From Dehalococcoidia bacterium (GTDB lineage Bacteria; Chloroflexota; Dehalococcoidia; Lucifugimonadales; Australimonadaceae): a stretch of 64,000 nucleotides of DNA. The DNA lies in contig OZ220477.1 of NCBI GenBank assembly GCA_965116015.1, positions 985,076 to 1,049,075 on the forward strand, given 5' to 3'. Positions 26,853 to 50,775 of this stretch are shown piece by piece. The stretch's first letter is position 1, and the number at the start of each line of letters is the position of its first letter. The translations under genes and the position numbers were made by a program. The notes beneath the pieces were generated by a model. It searched no databases. It was not told the origin of the DNA and saw only the letters and a program-made list of their open reading frames with translations.

Positions 26853-29800
26853 GTGACGGACGAGCACGACGCCATCATTGCAGAGCTGGGGAAGCACCCG
26901 TCGGCGCTCCTGTCGGCGTACGAGCAGGCCGCTGATTCGGTGGCCGGAGTGGTGGGGCCGGCTCCCGCGCTCCGCTGGGCGCAGGAGGGGGTTCGGATCG
27001 CGCAGCAGGGTCCGCGGGCCTGGGAGGCGGCGACCGAGTATTTCAAGGCGTCGCCGGAGGTTGTGAACGTCATCGGTTTCACGCAGCTCGAGCGGTGGGT
27101 GGAGAGCGGCATTGAGCTGACCGCGGACGCGCCGGTGATTGCGGCGTCGTTCTTCCGTGCGAGTCCGCGCGTGCTGCCGACGCTTGCACCGCGGCACATT
27201 GCTGGCTGGGCGTCGCTCGGCCGCAAGCTCTCGAGGGGGACGTGGAAGTCGTCGAGCCTGGCGGCTCGCTTCTTCGATGTGAGCGACGATCTTGTGCAGC
27301 AGGTGAGCTTTCACGAGATGCAGCTGTTCGTTGCGCTCGTGCAGACGCTGGCGAACCGGTCGTACGATCTTGCGGCGGAGGCTCTCGTGCTGGGGCAGCG
27401 GGTGCTGCCTTCGGTGTCGGAGCGAGAGGAGCTTATATCGCTGGCGACGGCGCTGGCGGAGACGAGCTGGCGAGAGGTTCGGGGGTCGTTCGAGGCGGCG
27501 TCGCGCGTGACGTCCAGCCTCGACCGGCGTCTGCGTCCTCGCTACTTTGCGCTTGCTGAGCGGCTTGCCCGGCAGGGGCTTGGGAACGTGTCGGGATTTA
27601 TGGTGGAGAGCGCGCAGGCGCTCGCCCGAATCCCGCAGGAGCAGCAGGCGGCTGTGCTGGAGCGGGCGGAGGATCTTGCGGGCGCTTCGGCTGAGGCTGT
27701 GAGCGCGTTCCTCCGGACTGCTCCACAGGTGCTCGAGCGGATCAGTCCCGCGCAGCTCGATACGTGGTTCCAGCGCGGGGTCGAGCACTTGCGGGAGAAC
27801 GTTGACGGAGGGGTGGCGTACTTCAAGCTGGAGTCTGCGCGCGCGGAGGCGCTCATCGATCAGCTTTCGTCGAGCATCGAGCTCGAGAAGGTGCAGGGTC
27901 TGCTGCATATGTACGCCAACGCGCTCGCCGGGACGGACGTGGAGCTGCACGCAGCCGACGACATCACTCACCGCAACATTGGCTGGGTGCATGTTGAGCT
28001 TGCCACGACCGACGGGAAGAGCGTGTTCTTGCCGAAGACTGTGGATCTGCGGGAGACGAAGCGGGAGAACTTCGCGTGGCTCAAGGTTGTCGCCACGCAT
28101 CAGGTTGGGCATCTGGAGTTCGAGAGCTTCAAGTTCGATTTCCATTCGGAGTCCAGCAGCTTCGCCGACTACCGGCAGGGGCTTGCCGAGGGACTGGGGG
28201 CGAAGCCGGGGTCTACGGAGATAGCTTCGTTCTTCGACATCTTCCCCACGCGGGCGATGGCCGCCGACCTCTTCTCGATCGTGGAGGACGCGCGGATCGA
28301 TCATCAGCTCACGGCCCAGTACAGGGGAATCGCTCCCGACTATGCGCAGGTGCAGGGGGAGGCGCTCGCGAACCGGGGGCCGATCGAGTTGATGCCCGCG
28401 CAGCAGGCGCTGATCGAGATGCTCATCCGGATCAGCCTGGGGGAGGAGTCGAACGTTCGCGCGCCCTCCAAGTTCGTGCGGCAAGCCGAGCAGCTTGCTG
28501 GTTTGCTGAAGGCTGTGCGGAGCAGGGACGCCAACGTGCAGGACTCGGCGGAGGCGGCGCTGCGGATGTACTACGCGCTGTCGCAGGTTCCCAATGAGAT
28601 TGTGCCGCTGGACGACTGGGAGAGCGTTGATCTTTCGAGGGCGCAGTTCGAGGAGCCGGAGCTTCAGGAGATTATCGACCAGCTCCGGGCGGAGGCTGAG
28701 CAGTCGGAGGAGGAGGCGTCCGGGGACGATTATGAGTCGCCGGAGGATGTTGAATATCGCGGGGACTTCAAGCCGGAGATGGTGCAGCTGCTGGCGCAGA
28801 TGCGGGGTCAGCCGGAGCCGGGGGACGACGAGGGAGCGGAGGGGGCTCAGGGGATCTCGCAGGCCGAGCTTGAGCAGGCGCTGCGGGATTCGACTGAGGT
28901 TGATCTGGGAGACGACGCCGAGGTTACGACGGTGGCAGCGAATATGATGAAGGAGATGGGAGCGGACGCGCCGCAGAATCCGGCTGGGTCGGGATACAAC
29001 CAGATTCCGCATGTGGATGAGGATGGGGGGCCTCTGGAGGCTCGGGAGCCGCGCTCGTACGTTTACGACGAGTGGGACTTCCGGGCGAACGATTATCGTC
29101 CGCGGTGGTGCGTTGTGCAGGAGCGGGTCGCGGTGGCGGGGGAGCCGGAGTTCTACAGCGAGACGCTGCATGCTTATGCGGGTTTGGTGGATCAGATCAA
29201 GCGGCAGTTCGAGTCTGTTCGTCCTGAGATGTACCGCAAGATGAAGCGGTTGCCGGAGGGGGAGGATATCGATATCGACGCGGGGATCGAGGCGCTGATT
29301 GATCTGCGGAACAAGATGACGCCGGACGAGCGGATTTATTGGCGGCGCAATAAGGATGAGCGGGATGTTGGGGTTGTTTTCCTGCTTGATATGAGCGCGT
29401 CGACTGCGGAGGCGGTGGAGGAGAGTTCAAGGGACGCCGACTGGAGCGCGCCGGGGGATCCGGTGGCGTACACGGCGTGGCTGCGGGCGCGTCGGGGGGA
29501 GGCGGGGCGTCGCCCCTACAAGCGGATCATCGATGTGGAGAAGGAGTCGATGGCGCTGCTGATGAACGCGCTGGAGACGATTGGGGATCGGTATGGGGTT
29601 TACGGGTTTTCGGGGTTCGGACGTGAGAATGTTGAGTTCTATGTGATTAAAGAGGTTGAGGAGCGTCTTACGGACAGGGTGAAGCGGCGGCTGGACAAAG
29701 TTGCGCCTCTGCACGCTACGCGGATGGGGCCGGCGATCCGTCATGCGACGACGAAGCTGGCGCACATCGACGCGAAGACGAAGTTCATGTTCGTTATCAG

Positions 29801-30047
29801 CGATGGGCGTCCGCAGGATCGCGGGTACTCGCGGGAGGGAGTGGAGAAGGAGTACGCGGTGCAGGATACGCGTATGGCGCTTATGGAAGCGCGGCAGTAC
29901 GACATTACTCCTTTCTGTCTCACCGTGGACCGGAACGGGCACGACTACCTGCGCACGATGACGGGCGATCTGAATTATGAGGTTCTGCCCGACATTCTTG
30001 AGCTTCCGCGGCGGCTGCCGCAGCTCTACAAGAAGATCACGCTGTAA
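26853..30047 (+). CDS. CbbO/NorD-like VWA-domain protein with long N-terminal extension
   Basis: YDEWDFR..DYRP.WC.V.E, FLLDMSAST (MIDAS), TRMGPAIRHA, ISDGRPQD. Confidence 0.9.
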   Translation: MTDEHDAIIAELGKHPSALLSAYEQAADSVAGVVGPAPALRWAQEGVRIAQQGPRAWEAATEYFKASPEVVNVIGFTQLERWVESGIELTADAPVIAASFFRASPRVLPTLAPRHIAGWASLGRKLSRGTWKSSSLAARFFDVSDDLVQQVSFHEMQLFVALVQTLANRSYDLAAEALVLGQRVLPSVSEREELISLATALAETSWREVRGSFEAASRVTSSLDRRLRPRYFALAERLARQGLGNVSGFMVESAQALARIPQEQQAAVLERAEDLAGASAEAVSAFLRTAPQVLERISPAQLDTWFQRGVEHLRENVDGGVAYFKLESARAEALIDQLSSSIELEKVQGLLHMYANALAGTDVELHAADDITHRNIGWVHVELATTDGKSVFLPKTVDLRETKRENFAWLKVVATHQVGHLEFESFKFDFHSESSSFADYRQGLAEGLGAKPGSTEIASFFDIFPTRAMAADLFSIVEDARIDHQLTAQYRGIAPDYAQVQGEALANRGPIELMPAQQALIEMLIRISLGEESNVRAPSKFVRQAEQLAGLLKAVRSRDANVQDSAEAALRMYYALSQVPNEIVPLDDWESVDLSRAQFEEPELQEIIDQLRAEAEQSEEEASGDDYESPEDVEYRGDFKPEMVQLLAQMRGQPEPGDDEGAEGAQGISQAELEQALRDSTEVDLGDDAEVTTVAANMMKEMGADAPQNPAGSGYNQIPHVDEDGGPLEAREPRSYVYDEWDFRANDYRPRWCVVQERVAVAGEPEFYSETLHAYAGLVDQIKRQFESVRPEMYRKMKRLPEGEDIDIDAGIEALIDLRNKMTPDERIYWRRNKDERDVGVVFLLDMSASTAEAVEESSRDADWSAPGDPVAYTAWLRARRGEAGRRPYKRIIDVEKESMALLMNALETIGDRYGVYGFSGFGRENVEFYVIKEVEERLTDRVKRRLDKVAPLHATRMGPAIRHATTKLAHIDAKTKFMFVISDGRPQDRGYSREGVEKEYAVQDTRMALMEARQYDITPFCLTVDRNGHDYLRTMTGDLNYEVLPDILELPRRLPQLYKKITL

Positions 30048-30093
30048 GGGTCGCTAAGGGTCCCGAGGGGCGCAGGCGGGCTCCCGGTTGGGG

Positions 30094-33000
30094 CTAGCGG
30101 CGGTCTTGGCGGGGGGCGGAGCGTTCGCGGACGGTGATTGCGCCGTCGTTGCCGAGCGATTCGTGGAAGGCTACGCGGGTGCGCTTGCCGCCATGAATCT
30201 GGGGTTCGCGAGCGAGTTTCTCACGCAGTAGTTCGAGGGGGCCGCCCGGTTCGCAGAGCTCCGGCGGCAAGCCGAGCACGTCGACGAGGAGGCGGCGGTC
30301 TAGCTCTGCGCGCGATGGGTCTTCGTCGATTTGGTCGAAGGGGAGGAAGCGGAGTTCGGCCATCGCTTCGAATGCGGCTTTTGCAGCGGCGTGCTGCTCG
30401 GCAGTGAGGGTTCGCGTGTCGAGGGCGGGGATGTTGGGGATTCCGGTGACTGTGATGCTTCCCCTACCCGACTGGGTTTTGTTCGCCGCCCACCAGTGCA
30501 TCAGGAGTCCCAGGGTGGAGTTGCACCAGAGGGCGAACGCGTACTCGTGATCAGGATCGTCGAAGATGATCGATGGCCACGCTCTGCCTCCGAGACATCG
30601 GCGCTCGGTCATCGCGACGATAAGGGACTGCGAGTTGAACCGCAGGTCGGCGTTGTAGTGGGCTCGGGTGGCGGTGTCCCATATTTTGGAGACGGCCTCG
30701 CTGTCGACGGGGAGTCCGTCGGAATCCGGTTCGACGGTCAGGCGGCGCTCGCGTTTGTTGTCGTGCGCCCAGAGGACGGGATAGGTGGGGGCGGGAGATT
30801 GGAGCGGGCGTACCCGGAAAGCTCCTCGCGGCGTGTTCGTAGGGCTACCGATCAGGCGATGGACGGGGCCTGTCCTAGCGATTGCGGAGATGGGGACGAT
30901 GGGGAGGTGAATATGGGTAGTTCCGAGGCGGGCGAAGTGGGTTAGCTGTCCGCGAGCGAGGTTGAATGCGGCCTGCGCCAGAGCGCAGTCGGCGATGCCG
31001 ACGAATTGCCAGGGGCCGTCGGGTGGGAGCGGCGCAGAAACGACCGCCTACGGTGCGGTCGTTTCTGCGCCGCTCCCGATTTTTATGGGCTGGAATTCCC
31101 CATCTTCGATGGCGCCGACTGCGCCGTCGGCGCGCATCCGCGTGATTTCGGCTGCGAGGAGTTCAGCTTCTTGGGTGGAGCGCGTCTGCCGGTTGAGTAT
31201 GGCGAATGTGGCGCGATGCTGCGGCAGGTCAGGGTCTCGGCGGGCGATGAGGAGGCACTCGGCCATCCCTGTGTCGGCGGAGAACGAGGCTTCGTCGCTG
31301 CCGGCTCCTGCGATGGTGACGACGGTGATGTCTTCGTACTTTTCCCGCCAGGCGGCGCGGGCGTCGTTCCAGGAGATTCCGCTCATTGCGCTGAGGGGGA
31401 GCACGAGGGCGATCGTTCCGTCGTTGCGGGCTTTGCGGGAGGCGAGCTCGGCGAAGTGCGACGCCAATCCGGCGTAGTCGTTGGAGGGAGCGCCTCTCGT
31501 GAGCGTCTTGACACGCGCGGACATCGCCTCCTGCTCGCGGTGGGTCTTCTCGAAGGCGGCGTATGCGGGTATGGGGACGTCCGCGTGGCTTGCCTCGTGG
31601 TTGGTGGGGCGGGTGAAGGGCGGGTTCATTATCACGAGGTCGAACTCTCGGTGGCCTACCCGCGAGACGAGGTCGCTCACTTCTTCAGGTTCGCGGGCGC
31701 CCGACATCACTGCGGCGGCTTTATCAATCAGGGACGGCTGCACGTGCTCGGCGAGGAGGTCGAGCGAGCCGACTGCGACGGGGCCGCTAGGCTGATCGTC
31801 GAGGGGGACTGTCGAGGGGATGTCGCCGTAGGGCATCGTGAGGAGGCATTCGCCGTCGAAGGGGGTGGCTGGGCGGCTGCCTGCGAGCATTGCGGCGGTG
31901 AGGTGCACGGCCATCGGGAGGACGTCGAGGCCTACGAGTCCGTGCTTCATCATTGGGGCATGGAGGGCTTCGGCGTCGCCGCCGTGGAGTTCGTGGAGGA
32001 GGGACATTCGGTGGTAGGCGGCGGAGAGGAGGGTTCCTGTGCCGCAGGCGAAGTCGCCGATCTGGACGCCTGCGAGGGTGTCGGCGTCGGCCCAGTCTGA
32101 GCCGCCGGGCGGGCGGTGGGTGGGGAGGGCGAGGCCGGCGAGGAGGGCTGCGGCTTCGGGTCGGGTGTAGTAGGTGGCGAGGAATTTGCGGTCGGCGATG
32201 AGTTTCTGGAAGACGACGCCCATAAGGTCGTGGGAGCGGGTTACGCCTCCGGCGACGAGCTGCTGGGCGGTTCGCCAGAGCGCGCCGAGGATTGCGTGGG
32301 AGGTTTGGGCTGGCATCCGGGAGACGATCTCTTTGGCGGTCCAGAAGATGGGCCAGTAATTGACTTTGAGGATGCGCTCCCACTCGAGGCAGAGCTCGTC
32401 GGCGGTGAAGCGGCCGCCGGGGCGGAAAGCGCTCACGGAGCGGATGCTGTGGCGAGGGGCGTCCTCGTCTGCGGGGGAGTTCTCGGGCGCGTTCGGGTCT
32501 TCCGGGACTTGGAAGCTGGCCTCGGCGAGCGATTCGTGGAAGACGAGGGCGTTCGCGACGACGGTCATCGCCATACGGCGCGTCTGGCCGTTGGGGTCGT
32601 CGGCCTGGCCGAGGGTTGTGGCGATCTTGGCGGCGAGTTCGGCGCCGTAGGGATGCCGGCGGGCGAGTTCGTTCGCCGCCAAGTCGACTCCCGCCTCGAA
32701 GCTGAAGGCGAGCGCCTCGATGCGGGGGGCGGGGAGCGTCGCCCGCTGCACGAGCATTGCGAGGTTGAGGACGCTTCCTTTGATCCAGCCGTCTTCGGGG
32801 AGGCGTTCGGGGGGTTGGTCGTTGGGGCGCCGGGTGTAGAGCGCGTATTCGAGGTCGCGGGAGCTGCGGATGCCGCTCCGGAGGGGCTGGCCGTCGAGCC
32901 AGGTTAGTTCGTCGGGGTAGACGAGGGCGATGGCGGTTTCGATGGGGCGTCCGTTCGTTTTCTTTCCGAGGCGGGATCTGGCGTCGGTCTCGGCGCTTGC

Positions 33001-33186
33001 GTAGTTGGCGCGCTCGGCTTCGATGACGACTGGCCATCCGCTGGCGTCTTCGATGATGATGTCGGCGCGTCCGCCGCCGTCGAGGGCGCCGAGTTCTTCG
33101 AATCTGACTGTCCAGCTGTTGCGGAGGTTTCCGAGCGTTTCGCCGAGGGCGGCGTTGATGGTTTGTTCGTGGGTGGGGCCGAGCAT
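30094..33186 (-). pseudogene. type IIG-like fused restriction-modification enzyme (~1030 aa) interrupted by one in-frame TAG at 31048-31050
   Basis: N-terminal nuclease-like RADIII...VVIEAE, YYTRP, DFACGTGTLL (motif I), VIMNPPF (motif IV). I translated 31047 to 30612 by hand; it is open and in frame with the 30094..30612 ORF. Confidence 0.82.
31025..31077. repeat. perfect 23-bp inverted repeat with 7-nt loop containing the premature stop
   Basis: GGGAGCGGCGCAGAAACGACCGC-CTACGGT-GCGGTCGTTTCTGCGCCGCTCCC. Confidence 0.97.
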
Positions 33187-33221
33187 AGCGGCGAGTTTAT
33201 CCGTGAGCTGGAGGGGGCGCT

Positions 33222-33291
33222 AGCAGGGCGTGTCGCGCGGCGCAAGTTGGGGCGGAGTCGGAGGGCGCCAGCAGGGCGTGTCGCGCGGCGC
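33222..33291. repeat. 22-bp direct repeat, two copies, intergenic
   Basis: AGCAGGGCGTGTCGCGCGGCGC at 33222 and 33270. Confidence 0.75.
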
Positions 33292-33349
33292 CGGTGGGCG
33301 GGGAGGCGGTGTCGTTGGGGCGGGTATTCGGTAGTATCATCTGCGAGCT

Positions 33350-34585
33350 ATGGATTTTGAGCTTGCGTGGACGCCGGAGCAGGAGGACTTCCGCAAGGAG
33401 GTTCGAGGGTGGCTTGAGGTCAACGCTCCGCGGATTCCGGATCATGCGGACCCGGCGAAGCTGACTCGCGCGGAGTACGAGCAGCAGCGGGAGTTCGGGC
33501 GCAGGCTTGGGGCGAAGGGGTGGCTGTATCCGGCGATGCCGTTGGAGTACGGGGGCGGGGGGATGTCGCTAGAGCTTGCGATGATCCTCGAGGAGGAGCT
33601 CGACGCGCACAATCTGCCGCTGCCTCCGTACTACGACACGGGAGGCAAGCTGGGGGCGATGGCGATTCTGGTGTGGGGGGACGAGGATCAGAAGCCGCAT
33701 TTCCTGCCGAGGATTCTCCGGGGAGAGGCGCGCACATGGCAGCTGCTGACGGAGCCGGAGTCGGGGTCGGATCTTGCGAGCGTGCGGACTACTGCGATGC
33801 GGGACGGGGACGATTATGTGGTGAACGGGACGAAGATCTTCGTGGGGAGCAATCACGGAGCGGAGTATTCGTGGACTATCGTTGTCACCGATCCGGAGGG
33901 GGAGCGTCACGCGAATCTTGGGTGGTTGATGATTCCGATGGATCTGCCGGGCATTACGGTGGAGCCGATGGATCTGCTGTTTGTGGGCGGGGAGCGCGGG
34001 GCGGCGAGCGGGGTGAAGAACACGGTGTTCTTCGACGATGTGCGCGTTCCGGCGTTCAATCTTGTCGGGGGCGAGAACAATGGGTGGAAGGTGGCGGGGA
34101 CGCATCTGGAGATCGAGCACGGGCTGCTGCGGAGCGCGGTGCGCGAGGATGCTCTGACGCGGCGGGTGTTCGAGCACGCCCGGGGGGCAATGCGCGAGGG
34201 GAAGCCGCTTACTGACGATCCGGATGTTCGGGACCGTTTGGTTGATTTCTATATCGATTCCGAGGTGACGCGGCTGCTGCACTTCCGCAACTATGCGTGG
34301 CGTGCGCAGGGGAAGCAGCTCACGTATGAGGCTCCGCAGGCGTATCTGTATCAGAAGCGCAGCCAGCTTTCGCGGGCGCGGGCTGTTCTGGATGTTATGG
34401 GCCTGGAGGCGCTGGTTGCGGATCCGGACGAGTGGGCGGTCGCGGAGGGGCATATCGAGACGCATCAGCGCGCCTCTATTGTGGATCAGCATCCGGGGGG
34501 GACGGCGGAGATTCAGCGGGTTATCATCGCGAGGCGGCTGGGGATCGGGCGGGAGGCTCGCGAGGAGCCGGGGAAGCTTCGCTAG
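33350..34585 (+). CDS. acyl-CoA dehydrogenase (alpha-type subunit)
   Basis: TEPESGSDLAS, YVVNGTKIF, VFFDDVRVP, GGENNGWKV, GGTAEIQR.IIA. Confidence 0.92.
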   Translation: MDFELAWTPEQEDFRKEVRGWLEVNAPRIPDHADPAKLTRAEYEQQREFGRRLGAKGWLYPAMPLEYGGGGMSLELAMILEEELDAHNLPLPPYYDTGGKLGAMAILVWGDEDQKPHFLPRILRGEARTWQLLTEPESGSDLASVRTTAMRDGDDYVVNGTKIFVGSNHGAEYSWTIVVTDPEGERHANLGWLMIPMDLPGITVEPMDLLFVGGERGAASGVKNTVFFDDVRVPAFNLVGGENNGWKVAGTHLEIEHGLLRSAVREDALTRRVFEHARGAMREGKPLTDDPDVRDRLVDFYIDSEVTRLLHFRNYAWRAQGKQLTYEAPQAYLYQKRSQLSRARAVLDVMGLEALVADPDEWAVAEGHIETHQRASIVDQHPGGTAEIQRVIIARRLGIGREAREEPGKLR

Positions 34586-48840: not shown

Positions 48841-50661
48841 TTAACTCACTTCTATTTCCGCGCTGTGCATTCCCTCTCCGCCTTTGTCATCCTGCACTTT
48901 GCAGGCCACTGTGAAGGCGCCAGCGCGTGGGAATGTGTGCTGGGCAGCGAGGGAGGCGCGTTCAGCCCATGGCAGACGCTCCGCGTGGAACGTCCGCCCG
49001 TTGTAGTCGAAGTCCCACTGCACGTTGATGATCTTGGCGTCGGGGTTGTATGTCTGCGTGTCGCTTGCGTCGAATCCGTAGTGCAGCGGCTTGAGCCGAC
49101 GATTCGCAAAGGAGACTTCTGGAGGTTGCACGAACGTGAGGAAATTCGAGTAGTCGCCGCGCTCGGTGGACTGCGAGGCGACGTGCTGCCGGAACGAGGG
49201 GGAATCTATGCGCACTTGCTCCAAGCGAACGAATGCGATGTGGGCAGCTCCGCGCTCGCGGAGTTCTTCAGCGGCTTGAACAGCATCCGGCGCGAATCCC
49301 CACGCCAGCATCACGCCATCGCGTAGTCCTTCCTCGTTTGAATAACGCGGCAACCTCGCAATCGCCTGAGCGAAAGCGTTAACGTCTTCAACCGTAACCG
49401 GCGAGGTGAGAGAGGGAGAGCCAACCCATACAGGCGCCTTTGCGTTCGAGCCTTTGTAGCCGTGGATGCCCTCGTCCGCGCTCGTAAAGCGAGCGTCGTA
49501 GCAGCAAAGCACGAAGCTGCGGAATTCGTCCGGCGGCATCTGCGACAGCCGCTCCGCCTCGTAGATGCCCCACTGCTCTATCGTGAAGTCGGGAGGCGCG
49601 CCCTCTTCCAGGGTGCGCACGATGGCTTGCCGCTTCAGTCGCTCAGCGGTAACTGCTATTGCAACGCGCGATTGGTCGCAACCGAGGAACTTGCGCTGCA
49701 GTCGCTATGCGACTGCAGCGCAAGTTCCGCCACCTACGAAAAAGTCAGCTACGACATCACCCACTTTCGACGACGCTTTAATGATGCGCTCAAGCAATGC
49801 TTCGGGCTTTTGAGTAGGGTAACCAACTCTCTCATTCGCTGTTTGTGACATCGTGTAATCAATCAGTTCATCATTATCCCAGAAGGAGTCTACTGGTTTT
49901 CCTCCTTTCAAGTAGTACCGCTTCCCATCCTGAATGAAGTACTTACCTTTTTCATCTTCTAGATTGTATTTTTCACGCATCCATTTGGACACCGGTCCGC
50001 GTATTTTGTTGTGATGGCTCTTAAGGGACTTAGCGTAATAGAAGATAATGTCATGCTTTCTCGGAAACCATCTCGCTACATTAAACCCGCCCAGTCCATA
50101 GTGCCAGATTACCTCGTTGCGGAAATTCTCATACCCAAACATCTTGTCCATTTCGACTTTGATGTAGTGGCTGGCGTGCCAGTCGCAGTGCACGTAGATG
50201 GAGCCCGTAGGCTTGAGAAGGCGCTTCATTTCGTAGAGGCGAGCGTTCAGCCAGACGAGGTAGCCGTCCAGACCTCCTTCCCAGATATCAGTGAACGAGC
50301 GCTCCTCGTTGTCGTCGCCCCAGAGGACGTTGTAGTTACGGTTGGAGAAGAAGGGCGGATCGATGTAGATGAGGTCAACGCTTTCAGAGGGAATCTGGCG
50401 CATCACGTGGAGGCAGTCTCCCCAGATGAGGCGATTGGGGTCGTGCGGCTCTTCTCTGCCAAGCTTGACGCGCTCGACAATCTGGGTAGGAAGGTTGACG
50501 ACGGGATAGTGGTTGCGGAATCCGGTGTTGCGCGAGTCCCACCCCAGCGGGGTGCGCGCGACAGGCACGTTCCCGAACCTGGCAGGCGGTCGGTAGAACT
50601 CCTCCTGCTGCGGCAGCGGCTCCGCTACGAGGTCGTCAGGCTGCAGTTGCTCATCAGCCAT
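48841..50661 (-). pseudogene. type III Mod-like DNA methyltransferase (~606 aa, C-terminal PKD-like domain) interrupted by one in-frame TAG at 49705-49707
   Basis: LIWGDCL, IYIDPPF (motif IV), YPTQKPEALLERII, DFFVGGGT (motif I) CAAVA*RLQRKFLGCD continues in frame into 48841..49620; PKD-like WDFDY..HTFP.AG.FTVACKVQDD. Confidence 0.85.
49686..49728. repeat. perfect 20-bp inverted repeat with 3-nt loop at the premature stop
   Basis: GGAACTTGCGCTGCAGTCGC-TAT-GCGACTGCAGCGCAAGTTCC. Confidence 0.97.
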
Positions 50662-50775
50662 GGGCGCGCGCCTCCGAGTCCCTAGAATGGGCGAGCGGAT
50701 AGTACCGCACTGGGTATGCCGCTGCGAGGCTTTCCCAATGCGGGATTCCCGCACAACCGGAAGCGCCCCCCTAGC

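Follow-up and report, generated by a model that had tools for sequence, protein, structure and literature searches.

A stop codon in the loop of a perfect hairpin: a probable recombinase-free switch in a restriction-modification gene of a Dehalococcoidia bacterium

This report concerns a perfect inverted repeat of 23 bp inside a restriction-modification gene of a Dehalococcoidia bacterium (assembly GCA_965116015.1). The gene lies in a 64,000-nt stretch of contig OZ220477.1 (forward-strand positions 985,076 to 1,049,075), hereafter called the window, and it is interrupted by a single stop codon that falls in the 7-nt loop between the two arms of the repeat. When the loop is replaced by its reverse complement, the stop disappears and the codons that take its place specify the residues typical of the protein family. 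In our judgment, the hairpin is probably an ON/OFF switch that acts on a single-chain enzyme and needs no recombinase; that the loop flips at present, the rate at which it would do so and the template-switch mechanism behind it are things that we infer from the sequences described below.

Results

The hairpin and the reading frame. The arms of the hairpin at 31025-31077 (31025-31047 and 31055-31077) are 23 nt long each, 100% complementary and separated by a 7-nt spacer, just as the original prediction had described them. In the window, the arm sequence is unique to its two sites at up to 3 mismatches, and matches were found in 0 of 100 shuffles. Folded as single-stranded DNA, the element has a computed free energy of -35.1 kcal/mol (z = -9.03), and none of 200 shuffled sequences was equally stable.

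On the minus strand, the frame 33186..30094 contains 1030 codons before its terminal stop, and the only stop inside it is the TAG at 31050-31048, in the hairpin loop. The peptide currently encoded across the hairpin reads ...GSGAETTAP, then the stop, then AVVSAPLPPDGPW. When a script exchanged the loop (31048-31054) for its reverse complement, the stop was gone and Ala-Tyr-Gly stood at the site. It had been claimed from the DNA letters that the loop TAG is the only lesion of a frame of about 1030 codons, with 317 codons intact downstream as far as 30094, and that inversion of the loop removes the stop and gives Ala-Tyr-Gly; both statements proved correct. The 145 codons that follow the stop include no in-frame ATG, GTG or TTG, so that, on the sequence, separate production of a C-terminal protein is not credible.

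A tract of simple sequence repeats that could set the frame was also looked for with TRF, over 30000-33400, and the open reading frame contains none. The program returned two weak rows only (3 copies of a 9-nt unit, score 33, and, lying upstream of the gene, a repeat with a 23-nt unit), neither of them a homopolymer or short-unit tract. The latter row corresponds to 33216-33292, in the divergent intergenic region just upstream of the gene start, where a 23-nt unit is repeated in tandem 3.3 times (alternatively, a pair of direct repeats of 36 nt that are 89% alike); this could be part of an operator or a promoter.

The flipped reading and the protein family. In a large protein collection, 3886 relatives of the gene product were found among 8000 scored candidates, and 110 of the 120 listed are single proteins of 909–1121 amino acids (aa). 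Because of this, the normal form of the family appears to be one chain of about 1030 aa, and homologues do not naturally end at the site of the stop. Around that site, they display Ile/Leu-Gly, a few variable residues and then [Y/F]-G-[V/A]-x-x-x-A-P-L-P-x-x-G-P-W. In an alignment of 27 sequences, Gly is at least 90% conserved at residue 713, which is the position of the stop, and Tyr is the majority residue at 712. The inverted loop encodes Tyr-Gly, exactly the family residues at 712–713, so that the flipped reading fits a family with [Y/F]-G at the loop and a near-invariant Gly where the stop now stands.

The two arms differ in what they encode. The distal arm specifies the conserved AVVSAPLP, whereas the proximal arm specifies its antisense image, GSGAETTA, within a variable linker. 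To judge from these translations, one arm resembles the native sequence, of which the other would be an inverted copy.

When the C-terminal 317 aa were used as a protein query, 379 matches were obtained, many of which are fragments. Four metagenomic C-terminal fragments (P0129, P0140, P0143 and P0151) start at a Met two residues past the Tyr-Gly site; such starts would be consistent with an interruption at this site in further relatives.

A compensated copy in a sister species. Genome G003, from the same genus, encodes a protein of 694 aa (P0002, 69% identical) that ends in ...TAP, at the same place as the product of the window gene. The G003 gene matches over 1029 residues, with a single internal TAA, and its homologous site again forms a stem of 23 bp, 100% complementary, around a loop of 7 nt. 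Between the two species, 8 of the 23 positions of the stem arms differ (six at third codon positions, two at others), and every change is compensated in the opposite arm. The loops differ at exactly three positions, which are third-codon positions in both orientations; the G003 loop holds the TAA and, once inverted, again gives Tyr-Gly. Translational bypassing, from a Pro codon to a downstream Pro codon, was considered as a way around the stop and rejected, as the conserved AVVSA residues would be lost and, in G003, the codons are mismatched.

The locus is syntenic in the two genomes (window 28041-34585), with protein identities of 93% for the flanking VWA protein and 91% for the acyl-CoA dehydrogenase, and with a flanking dS of about 1.6. 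For the restriction gene, dS is 1.5–2.1 and protein identity 70%; at like synonymous divergence, this gene has changed about 5 times faster at non-synonymous sites than its two neighbours. The 309 codons after the stop gave pN = 0.195, pS = 0.654 and dN/dS = 0.15, and the 705 codons before it gave dN/dS = 0.10, but these ratios are rough, because dS is near saturation between the two species.

Since those 309 codons have been under purifying selection despite near-saturated synonymous sites, the downstream part appears to have been translated for most of the time since the split from G003. The same dN/dS of 0.15 indicates that the window gene is not an old pseudogene, and it upholds the earlier argument that the intact downstream codons speak against long-term decay. 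Given that unconstrained DNA would be randomised at this divergence, some active process has apparently maintained the perfect pairing of the stem, too. The stops now present in the two species either arose recently and independently of each other or capture a reversible state at two moments; in both cases, by this comparison, the loop has been inverted more than once.

Long hairpins throughout the genome. We scanned the whole genome, a single contig of 2,388,059 bp, for perfect hairpins with a loop of 0–40 nt. There were 114 with a stem of at least 12 bp, including 16 with a stem of at least 18 bp. Thirteen of these 16 long hairpins lie inside the spans of DNA-methyltransferase or restriction genes, which occupy 3.4% of the genome, as opposed to 1 of the 98 with stems of 12–17 bp. 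A hairpin with a 15-bp stem is situated in a very long frame that does not belong to a methylase. The spans were partly drawn up after the hairpins had been seen, four genes being recognised as methylase or restriction genes only then; by independent matches to PF07669, PF01555 or PF02384 alone, the count is 9 of the 16 hairpins, in 8 genes. Outside methylase genes there are 3 of 16 (two intergenic; one between convergent genes, one between dctP and dctQ), and the two intergenic exceptions are at gene ends and resemble terminators.

The hairpins in methylase genes have stems of 17–29 bp and loops or spacers of 1–9 nt. Their arms are all different, with no common motif evident by eye. A mobile palindromic element was rejected as their source, as no two of them have arms in common, and so was a tyrosine-recombinase core site, as the arms differ both between hairpins and between species.

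Inversion of the loop toggles an in-frame stop in 8 of the 13 intragenic hairpins, 6 of them stopped now and 2 open now; in each of the 6 broken genes, the stop in the loop is the only lesion. As a null model, segments of the same length and phase elsewhere in the same genes were inverted, which created a stop in 4–19% of cases. The number of stop-toggling loops expected among the 13 was 1.07, versus 8 observed, a count that was attained in none of 200000 simulations.

All 11 actual or potential loop stops, in the source genome and G003 together, are TAA or TAG and never TGA; the genome is 66% G+C.

A second hairpin of this kind is found in the window, at 49686-49728 (Table 1). Its stop falls inside the SAM (S-adenosylmethionine)-binding motif region, one residue before a stretch, RL.R.F/Y.G, that is shared by paralogues. 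Elsewhere in the genome, at 161151-161267, two perfect hairpins stand back to back in one gene for a 1395-aa Eco57I-like enzyme.

Table 1. Features of the window gene and of other hairpin-bearing genes (window coordinates unless marked as genome; assignments of hairpin genes from Pfam)
Feature	Coordinates	Strand	Remarks
Window gene (member of the hairpin gene set)	33186..30094	minus	
Upstream part, readable now, 712 aa	31048..33186	minus	N-terminal region, then N6-adenine methylase core
Methylase motif I, D-F-A-C-G-T-G	32035..32055	minus	residues 378-384; invariant in 27 homologues
Methylase motif IV, N-P-P-F	31615..31626	minus	residues 521-524; invariant in 27 homologues
Downstream 317 codons and terminal stop	30094..31047	minus	in frame, intact; presumed specificity region
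Hairpin arm, distal on the coding (minus) strand	31025..31047		encodes AVVSAPLP, a motif conserved in the family
7-nt loop	31048..31054	minus	third base of Ala codon, Pro, TAG (31050-31048); inverted, Ala-Tyr-Gly
Hairpin arm, proximal on the coding strand	31055..31077		encodes GSGAETTA; variable linker, 4 aa longer than in most homologues
T-run adjoining the hairpin	31078..31086	plus	resembles an intrinsic terminator for antisense transcription; T-run in the sister species too
N6_N4_Mtase + PKD gene frame	48844..50772	minus	643 codons, one stop, in the hairpin loop
Second switch-like hairpin in the window	49686..49728		20-bp perfect arms, 3-nt loop; loop holds the only internal stop of the N6_N4 methylase gene
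Back-to-back hairpins	genome 161151-161267		18-bp stem/9-nt loop, stop-toggling, now open; 24-bp stem/24-nt spacer, recoding
Hairpin genes: four Eco57I/MmeI-like enzymes			1042-1395 aa
Hairpin genes: two N6_N4 methylases			one with HNH domain, one with PKD domain
Hairpin gene: type I HsdS			
Hairpin gene: Mrr + ResIII helicase + methylase fusion			1675 aa
Hairpin genes: two DUF1156 methylases			
Hairpin gene: paralogue of the window gene's family			

Distribution among relatives. The sister genome G003 has at least 3 more long hairpins, in two other methylase genes. Those with 25-bp stems (loops of 7 and 4 nt) have stops in their loops, and the one with a 24-bp stem and a 5-nt loop is of the recoding type. 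These other hairpin genes of G003 have no close orthologue in the source genome (27–28% identity). Conversely, when the protein of one hairpin gene was compared with five genomes of the genus, we obtained only partial matches of 57–60%, without hairpins. Among 79 loci of the window gene's family from species genomes, only that of G003 contains a hairpin.

Loss of a repair gene was examined as the cause of the trait and discarded, there being no correlation: of 5 genomes in the genus, all have sbcD and 4 have xseA. The sole genome without xseA is a 91%-complete draft and is itself free of hairpins. As to replication orientation, the cumulative GC skew was patchy and gave no clear origin or terminus.

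No recombinase next to the hairpins. The genome has no match to the serine recombinase family PF00239. Tyrosine recombinases (PF00589) are represented by 3 matches, none of which is next to a hairpin gene. Together with arms that differ from hairpin to hairpin and spacers of 1–9 nt, this does not correspond to a site-specific invertase that recognises its repeats. The locus does have the layout of an intragenic inverton, in that inverted repeats flank a segment inside an open reading frame and inversion changes what is read. It also has the marks of template switching, namely, a perfect stem with a short loop and several stem positions that changed together with pairing kept (8 of 23, compared with G003).

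Gene product and neighbours. Family matches of the 712-aa part were weak: Eco57I in Pfam (E = 0.0046, below the cut-off), MTase_II in PADLOC (E = 7.4e-8) and an Alw26I-type methylase in NCBIfam (E = 0.003). The C-terminal 317 aa had no match in Pfam, NCBIfam, PADLOC or the Protein Data Bank (PDB), the latter also when searched with a C-terminal profile (0 matches). For the whole gene product, PDB searches gave 0 matches by sequence and 4 by profile, all with E of at least 0.36 (including 7lo5, E = 0.36). No endonuclease family of Pfam, NCBIfam or PADLOC matched the N-terminal 330 aa. This region shows a conserved D42...E56-x-E58 pattern in the 27-sequence alignment, which could be a nuclease motif.

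Beside the 1030-codon gene there is neither a partner gene nor a recombinase. It is flanked by housekeeping genes of the opposite strand: to one side those for CoaE, a CbbQ/NorQ-type AAA protein, a NUDIX protein and a VWA protein, to the other those for acyl-CoA dehydrogenases. A lone gene for one chain with an N6-adenine methylase in its centre looks like type IIG/IIL, its nuclease and specificity domains being presumed. The assignment to a type IIG-like restriction-modification gene is tentative and draws on the methylase motifs and on matches in Pfam that remained below threshold.

The load of methylases is very high for a genome of 2.39 Mb, with 13 Eco57I-type, 14 N6_N4_Mtase and 5 N6_Mtase matches, in roughly 28–30 genes. 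One N6_N4 methylase (genome 1504156-1504929) is split over two frames (375 + 310 aa) and has no hairpin; this looks like an ordinary frameshift. Finally, hairpins at genome positions 4482, 279962 (18-bp stem, 7-nt loop), 2379832 and 2386719 have in common a CCCTGGGAGGAGC-type arm and G- or C-rich loops. They look like a repeated terminator-like or REP-like (repetitive extragenic palindrome) element, unrelated to the methylase hairpins.

Discussion

A possible mechanism. In the ON orientation, the frame would read through Ala-Tyr-Gly and yield the full enzyme of 1030 aa; in the OFF orientation, which is the state seen, it would read Ala-Pro-stop and yield a 712-aa product without the C-terminal third. 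Inversion could occur by a double template switch at the replication fork. The nascent strand would jump to the complementary arm on the other template, copy the loop from the wrong strand and then jump back, leaving the loop inverted. The same event would copy one arm onto the other, which would make for a perfect stem and coupled changes, and it could have created the second arm to begin with.

Template switching of this sort has been described in ribosomal RNA hairpins, bacterial ones included, with loop-only inversion and multi-base compensatory change (Monttinen and Loytynoja, PMC8794818, in the portion of the article available). Likewise, Chanin et al. (PMC10028968), in the accessible text of their work on intragenic invertons, treat flips of 7 bp in human mitochondrial DNA as separate, enzyme-independent events.

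Taken together, the roughly 13 hairpins in methylase and restriction genes may serve as contingency loci that vary the repertoire of restriction and methylation. Their gathering in such genes, and the enrichment of stop-toggling loops, would then be the outcome of second-order selection on contingency loci. The repeat tracts of other bacteria are explained in the same way.

Put more broadly, we see about an even chance that these genomes have a third route to phase variation, beside repeat slippage and site-specific inversion. Restriction and methylase genes would have recruited perfect palindromes of 17–29 bp that are made, kept perfect and flipped by template switching without a recombinase, loops of 1–9 nt would toggle stops or recode residues, and a clonal population would become a combinatorial set of active systems.

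Observations that weigh against a switch. Besides the rough dN/dS values and the partly retrospective gene spans already mentioned, several results tell against this interpretation. As for the state of the locus, contigs of 2 runs (from one study, one run being probably the source) and G003 are all in the stop orientation; the contigs were taken from Logan, and such contigs drop rare variants and cannot show minority forms. Both orientations were never seen together. An exact 31-nt stretch had 0 matches in metagenome contigs, and 8 related loci were found in metagenomes, the best 65% identical. The reverse-complement loop was also sought in relatives, and G003, the only relative with the hairpin, has the same orientation; it is from the family Tyr-Gly that we infer the inversion. 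The original prediction, that loop orientation sets the reading state of the gene, therefore holds as a statement about sequence, in view of the family fit, the selection on the downstream codons and the 145 codons devoid of a start; flipping itself was not seen in the contigs.

The trait is also narrow. No perfect hairpin longer than 14 bp occurred in the 180 kb covered by 20 restriction-gene regions from four other genomes within the genus, and none longer than 16 bp at 77 loci of the window gene's family from further Dehalococcoidia and a few additional phyla. Among the genomes searched, the trait is confined to two sister species.

Furthermore, inversion of the loop leaves the stops unchanged in 5 of the 13 intragenic hairpins, 4 of which recode a few residues and 1 of which has a palindromic loop, and because of these, ON/OFF switching cannot be the whole reason for the hairpins. 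The toggling loops stand at 9:2 for stop state versus open (6:2 in the source genome, 3:0 in G003); for a switch that reverses freely, this ratio is lopsided. Lastly, the hairpin looks like an antisense terminator in both species, which may be a second function or a coincidence.

Other explanations. Some of these points would suit a mutational hot spot without any switching role, an alternative that we hold to be unlikely. The hairpins would then be template-switch scars, tolerated in dispensable restriction genes, that knock genes out and revert too rarely to matter. Restriction genes are indeed often lost, and such scars would account for the stop state at the locus in all three populations, for the 9:2 ratio and for the 5 of 13 hairpins that toggle no stop. 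Yet the hairpin common to both species predates a split at dS of about 1.6, and the 309 downstream codons are still constrained (dN/dS 0.15), with a single lesion in each copy. If the two knock-outs at the same loop were instead recent and independent, they would themselves imply frequent flipping. The stems have stayed perfect across 8 changes. Intergenic DNA should contain neutral scars at no lower frequency, but all except 3 of the 16 long hairpins fall within methylase genes, and two of those 3 are terminator-like. In addition, loops that toggle a stop exceed expectation about 8-fold, and 2 of them belong to intact genes.

A further alternative keeps the inversion and replaces its motor. 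A lineage-specific, structure-specific protein that recognises cruciforms or hairpins rather than a sequence might make and flip the palindromes. The confinement of the trait to two sister species among those searched would suggest a factor peculiar to the lineage, and the narrow range of stem sizes (17–29 bp) would agree with it. We nevertheless judge this very improbable. There is no candidate, since serine recombinases are absent and none of the 3 tyrosine recombinases is adjacent to a hairpin gene or to this one; the arms, inspected by eye, have no evident common motif; and a spacer of 1–9 nt is, to our knowledge, far too short for synapsis by known invertases.

Lower still is the probability that the hairpin has a regulatory role, for example as an antisense terminator or an RNA element; the stop would then mark where a 712-aa protein naturally ends, or else translation would bypass it or read through it. 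In favour of this, the hairpin and its T-run (31028-31084, plus strand) are the only terminator-like site within 29800-33500, the T-run recurs in G003 and the G003 protein ends at the same place. This explanation is countered by downstream codons that are under purifying selection and colinear with one-piece homologues, by 145 codons after the stop without a start codon, by a stop that replaces a near-invariant Gly inside a conserved motif, and by the other hairpins, which have no common flank and one of which splits a SAM-binding motif. The T-run is made up of A-rich codons (rare Ile and Lys), and these are retained in G003.

The least credible option is an assembly or sequencing artefact: both genomes are metagenome-assembled genomes (MAGs), probably from one project, and for loops of 1–3 nt an 'inversion' amounts to 1–3 substitutions at the centre of a palindrome, but base-calling errors do not produce an exact 7-nt reverse complement, the same sequence is present in independent k-mer contigs of 2 runs, G003 has a diverged and fully compensated copy, and the proteins are colinear with homologues across the hairpins.

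Implications. If the loops flip by template switching, a perfect palindrome alone would suffice for a heritable and reversible switch, and selection would be making use of template-switch mutation in protein-coding genes. Current inverton finders, being designed for longer spacers and for invertases, would miss switches of this kind. Such loci could be recognised in uncultured bacteria by a simple sequence rule for contingency genes, that is, a long perfect intragenic hairpin with a stop in the reverse complement of its loop. In the present genome, six methylase or restriction genes that an annotation would take for pseudogenes or split genes may be switchable, which matters when methylomes and phage resistance are predicted from MAGs.

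Comparison with known systems. Phase variation of defence and methylase genes is known to proceed by repeat slippage or by recombinase-driven inversion. In a full-text literature search, which did not cover supplements, no account emerged of restriction or methylase genes being switched by the flipping of a hairpin loop.

With respect to the enzyme, the type IIG/IIL proteins (MmeI, Eco57I and DrdV) resemble the product of the window gene in their length of about 1030 aa, their central gamma-type N6-adenine methylase (motif I followed by NPPF), their long C-terminal region and their solitary gene. The window gene differs in that its matches are below every curated threshold and its nuclease and target-recognition domains are presumed.

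Phase-variable restriction-modification genes and phasevarions are classic contingency loci, turned ON and OFF by a hypermutable tract inside the open reading frame (PMC11475388). Known tracts are simple sequence repeats, or else hsdS is shuffled by recombinases, whereas the window gene has no such repeat.

Another close parallel is the premature-stop type of intragenic inverton (PMC10028968), in which invertible DNA lies within an open reading frame between inverted repeats and one orientation gives a stop, so that there are two products or states. As described in the accessible text, those elements are mediated by an invertase, with one stated size of 57 bp, whereas hairpins of the window type would flip 1–9 nt between perfect arms of 17–29 bp.

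As regards the motor, template-switch hairpin mutations (PMC8794818) likewise involve a perfect stem, a short loop that turns into its reverse complement and several stem positions that change together; the likeness rests on the 8 compensated arm differences and the flipped Tyr-Gly reading, which match this pattern. They concern RNA genes and non-coding DNA and, in the available portion of that article, are not described as a stop-toggling device in protein-coding genes or as concentrated in one gene class. Template-switch mutagenesis at quasipalindromes of E. coli (PMC7202029) offers the motor proposed here, as hairpin-forming inverted repeats are hot spots of mutation through template switching during replication; it is known as a source of rare mutations in imperfect palindromes rather than for a conserved perfect palindrome kept in a gene.

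Perfect inverted repeats with both arms translated have also been reported for protein-coding genes of Nematomorpha mitochondria (PMC6649704). These are much longer (up to 284 bp) and mitochondrial, and the accessible portion of the report does not present them as stop-toggling.

Minute inversions of hairpin loops occur in chloroplast DNA as well. Compared with all of these, the hairpin switch would be a form of phase variation by DNA inversion, and it has a fair chance of deserving the name of a new mechanism.

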